Positions 42,268 to 43,292 of a stretch of 64,000 bases of DNA are shown here, one piece after another. Position 1 is the first letter of the stretch. Every line of letters begins with the position of its first letter. A program made the translations under genes and the position numbers. The DNA comes from Eledone cirrhosa (Eukaryota), in contig OZ024750.1 of the NCBI GenBank assembly GCA_964016885.1, positions 35,216,001 through 35,280,000 of the forward strand, in the 5' to 3' direction. The notes below the pieces were generated by a model that was given only the letters and a program-made list of their open reading frames with translations, was not told the DNA's origin and ran no database searches.

Positions 42268-43292
42268 AAAAACAAATAACGAAACGAAATTAAATTTCGT
42301 TTCGTTTGTAACTCACTTTTGTATGACTGACGCTTAAACAATTAAGTTAAAAATGTACATCCACATATGTATACTGAAATACTAGTATGCATATGAATAC
42401 ACACACGTATACATATGTAGATGTACCGATTTTTTCACTGGTCACTTTACTGTGAGTGTCCAGCTATTCTGTATGTAAACACACAGACAAACCGGTTTTT
42501 AGAGTCATACTGGTTTTTGAGGAAACACCTTTCCTCTATTCTCCAGAAAGCCAGACAAGGAATATTGAACTAGTTTCGTTGTTGTTACAACTCATCAGCA
42601 ATATTTACCTATCTTCCGGCCTTTCTAGAGAATCGTAAAAGCACATATCGTTATATGCTTTTTCTATGAAAATTTGTCGGTGTGTTTACATACAGAATAG
42701 CTGGACACTCACAGTAAAGTGACCAGTGAAAAAATCGGTACATCTACATATGTATACGTGTGTGTATTCATATGCATACTAGTATTTCAGTATACATATG
42801 TGGATGTACATTTTTAACTTAATTGTTTAAGCGTCAGTCATACAAAAGTGAGTTACAAACGAAACGAAATTTAATTTCGTTTCGTTATTTGTTTTTATCG
42901 TCTCCGCTGAACCGGTACGTACTCACGCTCTATGCAAATTAGTCTGCCCACTACTAATTTTCATAGAAAAAGCATATAACGATATGTGCTTTTACGATTC
43001 TCTAGAAAGGCCGGAAGATAGGTAAATATTGCTGATGAGTTGTAACAACAACAACGAAACTAGTTCAATATTCCTTGTCTGGCTTTCTGGAGAATAGAGG
43101 AAAGGTGTTTCCTCAAAAACCAGTATGACTCTAAAAACCGGTTTGTCTGTGTGTTTACATACAGAATAGCTGGACACTCACAGTAAAGTGACCAGTGAAA
43201 AAATCGGTACATCTACATATGTATACGTGTGTGTATTCATATGCATACTAGTATTTCAGTATACATATGTGGATGTACATTTTTAACTTAAT
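42268..43292. mobile_element. Sister hammerhead repeat family (469-bp period), inverted arrangement; HHRs at 42561-42605(-) and 43025-43072(+)
   Basis: aatattg-CTGATGA-gttg-taacaa(caa)-caac-GAAA-cta-GTT-caatatt; tgtgtttacatacag recurs at 42681 and 43150. Confidence 0.9.

Follow-up and report, generated by a model that had tools for sequence, protein, structure and literature searches.

Layout of the family B locus and its neighbors

The window, by which we mean the whole stretch of 64,000 nucleotides of Eledone cirrhosa DNA analyzed here (contig OZ024750.1), contains two divergent copies of a non-coding 466-bp unit, family B, flanked by (TA)n tracts. Positions within the family B monomer are given as phases, phase 1 being the first A of the octamer in a promoter-like element. 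The features are as follows:

42210..42268, no strand: (TA)n target tract, left
42266..42677, minus strand: family B inverted copy, 5'-truncated (phase 22 to 436)
42266..42339, minus strand: ~70-nt "tail" from the proximal fixed 3' end (phase 362-367) to the distal one (436)
42559..42609, minus strand: type I hammerhead of the minus copy (core 42598-42592)
42673..43293, plus strand: family B plus copy (one 469-nt period + 152 nt, phase 211 round to 362)
42931..42942, plus strand: TATGCAAATTAG, host U6-type element by motif match to host genes
42973..42980, plus strand: degenerate TATA-like box, 42-43 nt past the octamer
43021..43074, plus strand: type I hammerhead of the plus copy (core 43032-43038)
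43293..43799, no strand: (TA)n target tract, right
43801..48784, minus strand: broken Penelope-like element (PLE), in the same TA tract as the family B locus
53578..59546, plus strand: family A array, 12.8 units of 466 bp
33501-33931 (minus), 51842-52608 (minus), 52628-52997 (plus), and ~53068-53577 (minus): further family A copies

The repeats are arranged head to tail with one type I hammerhead per unit, which at this locus amounts to one ribozyme per arm. The minus copy lacks the octamer and terminates at the distal of two fixed 3' ends, so named because they recur across the genome (see below); the ~70-nt tail is confined to this end of the locus. The plus copy, also with a single hammerhead, terminates at the proximal end. 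Its two plus-strand repeats differ by one base, with 42673-42824 recurring at 43142-43293. The period of 469 bp, or 466 bp without the extra AAC of the plus copy, that the original prediction gave is borne out: 469 applies in the window and 466 in 119 of 138 genomic family B spacings, counted over overlapping loci. Family B has a GC content of 36%, and no open reading frame of ≥100 amino acids lies within it except for frames that enter from the TA tracts.

The element at 43801..48784, which we take to be a PLE from its motifs, has a layout like that of the family B locus, with inverted arms (43881-45243 and 47422-48784), a hammerhead-like motif in each arm, and ~80 extra nucleotides at one end. 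Frames resembling a reverse transcriptase (RT) end and GIY-YIG lie at 45674-46710; a Pfam search of two frames of the element returned no family. Elsewhere in the window are a 649-amino-acid frame at 49921-51870 (minus), which is presumably LINE-like, a 5S rRNA-like copy at 18677-18795 (minus), and a weak tRNA-like match at 13935-13992 (plus).

Relationship, abundance, and length of the families

An 18-base family B core pattern has 8,905 exact matches in the genome, compared with 0 for the reversed control. Families A and B are homologous over their full length at 61% identity (311 of 509 alignment columns), and their alignment score of 193 compares with a best of 9 in 200 shuffles; B is thus not the repeat of largely different sequence that it had first been taken for. 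Family C has a 323-nt monomer of the same architecture as A and B, with a different ribozyme and little similarity to them outside the promoter block. Family E is old, with matched stretches at 70-88%; like C, it surfaced through a search pattern of octamer followed by hammerhead core. Another degenerate octamer-TATA-hammerhead copy, with loop TAACAA, was seen at a separate locus (L105:1563-1700) and is possibly a fifth family.

The modal length of 466 nt is common to A and B. However, the cut-to-cut lengths of distinct monomers range from 461 to 472 in B and from 430 to 538 in A, and C stands at 323; these ranges do not support the earlier suggestion that monomer length is under selection. 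The unit also occurs at high identity in contigs from two other organisms (sequencing runs of unknown kind). Among these contigs, one of 496 nt and one pair of 343 + 183 nt fit a closed 466-nt cycle and a tandem array equally.

In short arrays, the units of the two arms are identical (at one locus, all 5 of 5). In long arrays, which reach ~30 units, recurring variants are common to the units, and this pattern points to later expansion at the DNA level. Because long arrays carry such variants, we rejected array length as evidence of rolling reverse transcription.

Ribozyme fold and covariation

In both copies, a CUGANGA/GAAA/NUH core is joined to stems I to III in the type I topology, open at stem I. 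Stem I has 6 bp and a bulge, stem II has 4 bp with a 6-nt loop, and stem III is a 2-bp palindrome. The motif as originally quoted is exact in the minus copy, where cleavage is predicted after GUU, between 42568 and 42567. The plus copy differs from it by a private AAC duplication in loop II; there, stem II is formed by 43039-43042/43052-43055, stem III by the palindrome ACTAGT, and the predicted cut after GUU falls between 43065 and 43066. Both ribozyme regions fold far better than chance (z of -5.2 and -5.8, with 0 of 200 shuffles as good), and an Rfam scan gave no hammerhead match at gathering thresholds. Several hammerhead-like motifs with similar flanks and a long stem II lie at 11704-11745 (plus), 23489-23519 (minus), 43947-43988 (minus), and 48677-48718 (plus), the last two inside the PLE-like element's arms. 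Near TA runs at 41070-41119 and 59861-59966 are further short inverted pairs, which have hammerhead-like cores but no homology to A or B.

For covariation analysis, we used 22 distinct indel-free A/B variants chosen from 43. The catalytic residues are invariant among A/B variants, and 89.8% of cells pair. Pairing is therefore largely kept, as the original prediction had proposed, but not throughout: just 9 of the 22 variants form the outer seventh pair of stem I, and we consequently define this stem as 6 bp with a bulge. The changes in stems I and II between A and B are likewise as first described, except that one of the three in stem II took place within B, where GATG/CATC is the commoner stem II form. 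The core, loop II, and the upstream GGTAAA, all held to be unchanged, do in fact vary. Position H17 is A in family A, U in the window copies of B, and C most commonly in B among the fetched loci, so that the cleavage triplet is GUA in A versus GUU or GUC in B. Pair 10.1-11.1 is U·U in A and G-C in B, loop II reads TAACAA or TAATAA, and GGTAT replaces the upstream motif in A subfamilies.

The covariation score of 0.343 exceeded that of all 500 shuffles (0.143±0.017), and slid controls reached at most 0.106. Six pairs are altered on both sides, a number that is not above shuffles (304 of 500 match it). The signal reflects a handful of lineage events rather than 22 independent ones. Among the changes are a G•U to U•G wobble flip within A, an A-U to U-A change within B, and one-sided G•U changes. 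Selection on ribozyme structure, as originally claimed, is supported by these stem changes, and we regard hammerhead covariation between the sister repeats as real but ordinary. A GG-U bulge, the opposing U-U-C-C, and U-A-A..A of loop II are invariant, making a tertiary contact between loop II and the stem I bulge plausible from sequence. These invariant elements match the canonical type I design, with a 6-bp helix I, a 4-bp helix II, and a palindromic helix III, as set out in passages of PMC4209133; the same passages describe the canonical animal form as requiring a second copy and cleaving as a dimer.

Folding of the whole monomer as a circle gave z values of -11.5 (B) and -9.6 (A) against 60 shuffles, predicting the stable self-paired monomer expected of a retrozyme. 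The sense (ribozyme) strand was the more stable in 10 of 10 A/B monomers but not in the single C monomer tested. Across 8 monomers, 28 of 97 consensus pairs are altered on both sides, with an alignment that is soft at such identity.

Anatomy of the insertions

Insertion ends were mapped in the window and in 65 of 150 loci, the remainder being overlaps, small-RNA genes, and other families. The loci were taken from the top-scoring hits and from the earliest matches on contig C1 and form a biased, non-random sample. Among 48 B 3' ends, 19 lie at phase 362-367, 25 at phase 435-436, and 4 elsewhere; 44 of 48 thus fall at two sites ~70 nt apart, and 42 of 48 join (TA)n. The 49 B 5' ends, by contrast, scatter over phases 1-424, with 4 TA-flanked (four at phase 1 are a boundary artifact). 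Inverted pairs are divergent, 5' to 5', in 18 of 18 cases for B and 10 of 11 for A. Of the 15 B pairs for which both ends could be seen, 11 combine the long end on one arm with the short end on the other. Family A prefers 3' ends at 370-374 and 424-429, positions homologous to those of B, in a list that includes microsatellite noise, and family C has twin ends at 250 and 297. The tail measures 47-74 nt. Twin fixed 3' ends of such repeats were not found in the literature searched.

This combination of a fixed 3' end, 5' truncation, an inverted 5' copy, a one-ended tail, and a microsatellite target is the anatomy of PLE insertions. PMC8557442 describes those as partial tandems that are truncated at the 5' end, where an inverted copy is joined, that favor microsatellites, and that carry a tail of 30-40 bp, often at one end only. 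The fixed 3' ends do not coincide with the ribozyme cut site (phase 134). Since the window plus copy has a single ribozyme and yet continues through the cut site and the promoter, its template was not a linear cut monomer; ends off the cut site, together with single-ribozyme copies spanning cut site and promoter, show that the template was a circle or a multimer. Read as Pol III termination sites, the 3' ends would fit B, where T5 runs lie just before both, but not the proximal end of A.

A source of the enzyme was sought among PLEs. The neighboring PLE-like element is not supported as the partner of B, with which it shares no sequence similarity, and none of the PLE ends examined (six 3' regions) resembles A, B, or C in sequence. 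PLE-like frames occur in several fetched loci, a co-location that may just reflect common TA tracts. At one locus (L108:751-1673, minus strand), a family C variant with octamer, TATA-like box, and hammerhead lies directly against a PLE-like RT and GIY-YIG frame that is truncated at its 5' end; the variant is absent from that element's own 3' region, and the junction is possibly a template switch or a pLTR.

The ends also bear on whether these repeats are mobile at all. They could be a DNA satellite or fold-back repeat with an inactive hammerhead, in which quasi-palindrome correction produced the compensatory changes. The units are indeed rich in near-perfect palindromes, the long arrays display DNA-level expansion, and the window copies carry GUU, a weaker cleavage triplet. 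In addition, 8 of 9 Xenopus retrozymes failed to cleave in vitro, according to passages of 10.64898/2026.07.22.740005. A satellite of this kind would nevertheless account poorly for the invariant catalytic residues, the wobble flip and the one-sided changes involving G•U, the folding bias toward the sense strand, and the fixed 3' and variable 5' ends, a signature of reverse transcription. We consider this explanation very improbable. By contrast, we hold with high confidence that the element is a retrozyme copied by a PLE enzyme.

A host U6-type element upstream of the ribozyme

Four hammerhead families carry ATGCAAAT(T/G)AG and a TATA-like box upstream of the ribozyme. Outside the ribozyme, the block TATGCAAATTAG is the best conserved; its distance upstream of the core is 100 nt in B and 88 nt in A. 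It is present again in family C, whose remaining sequence bears little resemblance to A and B. Genome-wide, the pattern of octamer followed by hammerhead core has 26,680 matches (reversed control, 0).

The same element occurs in host genes for U6, U6atac, and RNase MRP, at -76 to -78, with TATA at -30. Allowing one mismatch, it is present at 12 of 20 U6 loci (three distinct upstream types), 1 of 6 U6atac loci (the best-scoring match, with one mismatch), and the single RNase MRP locus, a gene retrieved only once the promoter idea had been formed. It was not found at host loci for U1 (0 of 10), U2 (0 of 14), or RNase P (0 of 1). As many host loci are tandem copies, the independent counts are roughly three U6 upstream types plus U6atac and MRP, against a few U1/U2 types. 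The 8 U6 and 5 U6atac loci without the element may be pseudogenes. U6, U6atac, and MRP are type 3 Pol III genes, while U1 and U2 are Pol II genes; the upstream element thus matches the former group and not the latter, as expected of a type 3 promoter. Since every full unit carries this upstream signal of host U6 genes, the element likely brings its own promoter.

Several features of the host loci were observed along the way. U6 variants form tandem arrays with a ~1.8-kb period (L033-L050, C19), some units of which have lost the octamer, and U2 genes form an array with a ~2.2-kb period (L062-L073, C3). At U1, U2, and RNase P loci (L060-L073, L130, L176-L185), TCAGT lies near -58 and a TATA-like run near -30, so that the RNase P upstream region groups with Pol II snRNA genes and not with U6 and MRP. 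At one further locus (L044), a U6-like copy directly follows sequence also present at ~41160-41225 of the window, which suggests a retroposed chimera.

The spacing from octamer to TATA is 42-43 nt in A, B, and C versus 46-48 in host genes, or about half a helical turn less, and the TATA-like box of family B is degenerate, which also counts against a working Pol III promoter. Only family E reproduces the host arrangement, with TATAAATA ~47 nt past the octamer. Each B unit also contains runs of T4 (phases 27 and 59) and of T5 (phases 349 and 430), and a full monomer would therefore require Pol III read-through. T4 depletion downstream of the predicted start was discarded as an argument for Pol III, since among 2,000 shuffles such runs were likewise absent from 61% for B and 78% for A. 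A coincidence of that start with the edge of extended stem I was set aside, being inexact in B. In the window plus copy, U6 spacing predicts a start at ~43004.

The T4/T5 runs, which would hinder Pol III, and the altered spacing would suit a retrozyme copied by a PLE in the same way whose octamer is a Pol II enhancer or snRNA-like element, as reported for newt satellite 2 (cited, in passages of PMC2220036, as Pol II transcribed with an snRNA promoter). Yet none of the 24 host loci for the Pol II genes U1 and U2 has the element. They have in common with RNase P another motif, near -58, that is not present at a conserved place in A and B, and family E keeps the U6 spacing. We judge a Pol II role distinctly unlikely.

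A second reading leaves the octamer as a relic, or as an RNA hairpin serving structure or RT binding, with transcription by read-through from the flanks as the general model proposes. In A and B, the octamer forms the 5' arm of a predicted hairpin by pairing with a degenerate, inverted copy of itself further downstream, and its conservation could partly reflect RNA structure; the TATA spacing unlike that of host genes points the same way, and retrozymes reportedly seem to lack promoters (PMC7761336). A hairpin alone, however, leaves unexplained why the sequence of the 5' arm is invariant when that of the 3' arm is not, why a TATA-like box stands at a fixed distance in four families, and why the match is specific to the Pol III gene class. 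We regard the relic or hairpin reading as unlikely.

Proposed life cycle

We therefore favor, as the probable explanation, a retrozyme with its own U6-class promoter that is likely transcribed, likely self-cleaving and circularizing, and likely copied by a PLE into (TA)n. Given our high confidence in the retrozyme and PLE part alone, the doubt lies mostly in the promoter. In this proposal, Pol III would probably begin transcription ~30 nt past the TATA-like box, a short distance before the ribozyme, and read-through into the next unit would yield two hammerheads. These would cut, probably as a dimer via the palindromic stem III, releasing a 466-nt monomer that includes the promoter, and a host ligase would close it into a circle. 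A PLE reverse transcriptase/endonuclease would then nick (TA)n and prime on the RNA at internal phases ~365 and ~436; one priming site per target strand would give two divergent, 5'-truncated copies. Copying round the circle would restore the promoter upstream of the ribozyme and produce short tandems, some of which DNA-level exchange may later lengthen into longer arrays.

More tentatively, at somewhat less than an even chance, these repeats may represent a self-sufficient Pol III retrozyme lineage that captured a host external U6 promoter and kept it by circular permutation, with a PLE priming at two specific positions on the circle and young insertions, in the tens of thousands, recording this two-ended priming. 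As the promoter would travel inside the RNA circle, each round of copying would return it to the front of the ribozyme. Ordinary SINEs use internal promoters and so avoid the problem of propagating an upstream one; a mobile element that propagates an upstream promoter would solve the problem that SINEs sidestep.

With this element, retrozyme transcription and insertion become testable on a small non-coding unit. The promoter candidate comes with positive and negative controls from the host, and the insertion ends fit PLE-type priming away from the ribozyme cut. The tandem and inverted structures of PLEs are ascribed, in passages of PMC8557442, to still undefined features of the PLE cycle, for which ~26,000 short copies offer a large natural data set.

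Comparison with known systems

Judged by what can be tested in sequence, the element is of the non-LTR retrozyme kind, a known class: it is non-coding, below 50% GC, and dispersed at high copy number (the 8,905 matches above). Non-LTR retrozymes of coral, mussel, and axolotl, as portrayed in passages of PMC7229834, are likewise non-coding, low-GC tandems with one type I hammerhead per unit, a highly paired predicted circle, and thousands of copies, and the axolotl HHR_Amex2 has U·U at the base of helix II, as does family A. The unit of 466 nt exceeds the 170-400 nt of the expressed forms there, although unit sizes of 51-972 are given in passages of 10.64898/2026.07.22.740005. Two further differences are the twin fixed 3' ends with divergent pairs, of which a term search of PMC7229834 found none, and the U6-class element, given that animal retrozymes seem to lack promoters (2020 review, PMC7761336). 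A U6-class element in hammerhead retrozymes or PLEs was not found in the literature searched, nor were the twin fixed ends; related families may appear in supplements.

With PLEs and their non-autonomous derivatives (passages of PMC8557442, PMC4209133, and 10.64898/2026.07.22.740005), the element shares 5' truncation, partial tandems, an inverted 5'-adjacent copy, a one-ended tail, (TA)n bias, and a type I hammerhead with palindromic helix III. It differs in having no ORF, a tail of 47-74 nt versus 30-40, no homologous pLTR among the six PLE 3' regions, and multimers of up to ~30 units. A PLE origin of such elements has already been proposed (10.64898/2026.07.22.740005), and in passages of that paper and of PMC7229834, the link rests on co-occurrence and pLTR homology.

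Finally, PMC2220036 cites two hammerhead satellites that likewise have a promoter inside the repeat: newt satellite 2, with one of the snRNA-type Pol II kind, and Schistosoma Sm-alpha, with a Pol III promoter. Unlike in those satellites, the match in the present repeats is to the upstream (type 3) element of the host U6, U6atac, and MRP genes and not to U1 or U2.
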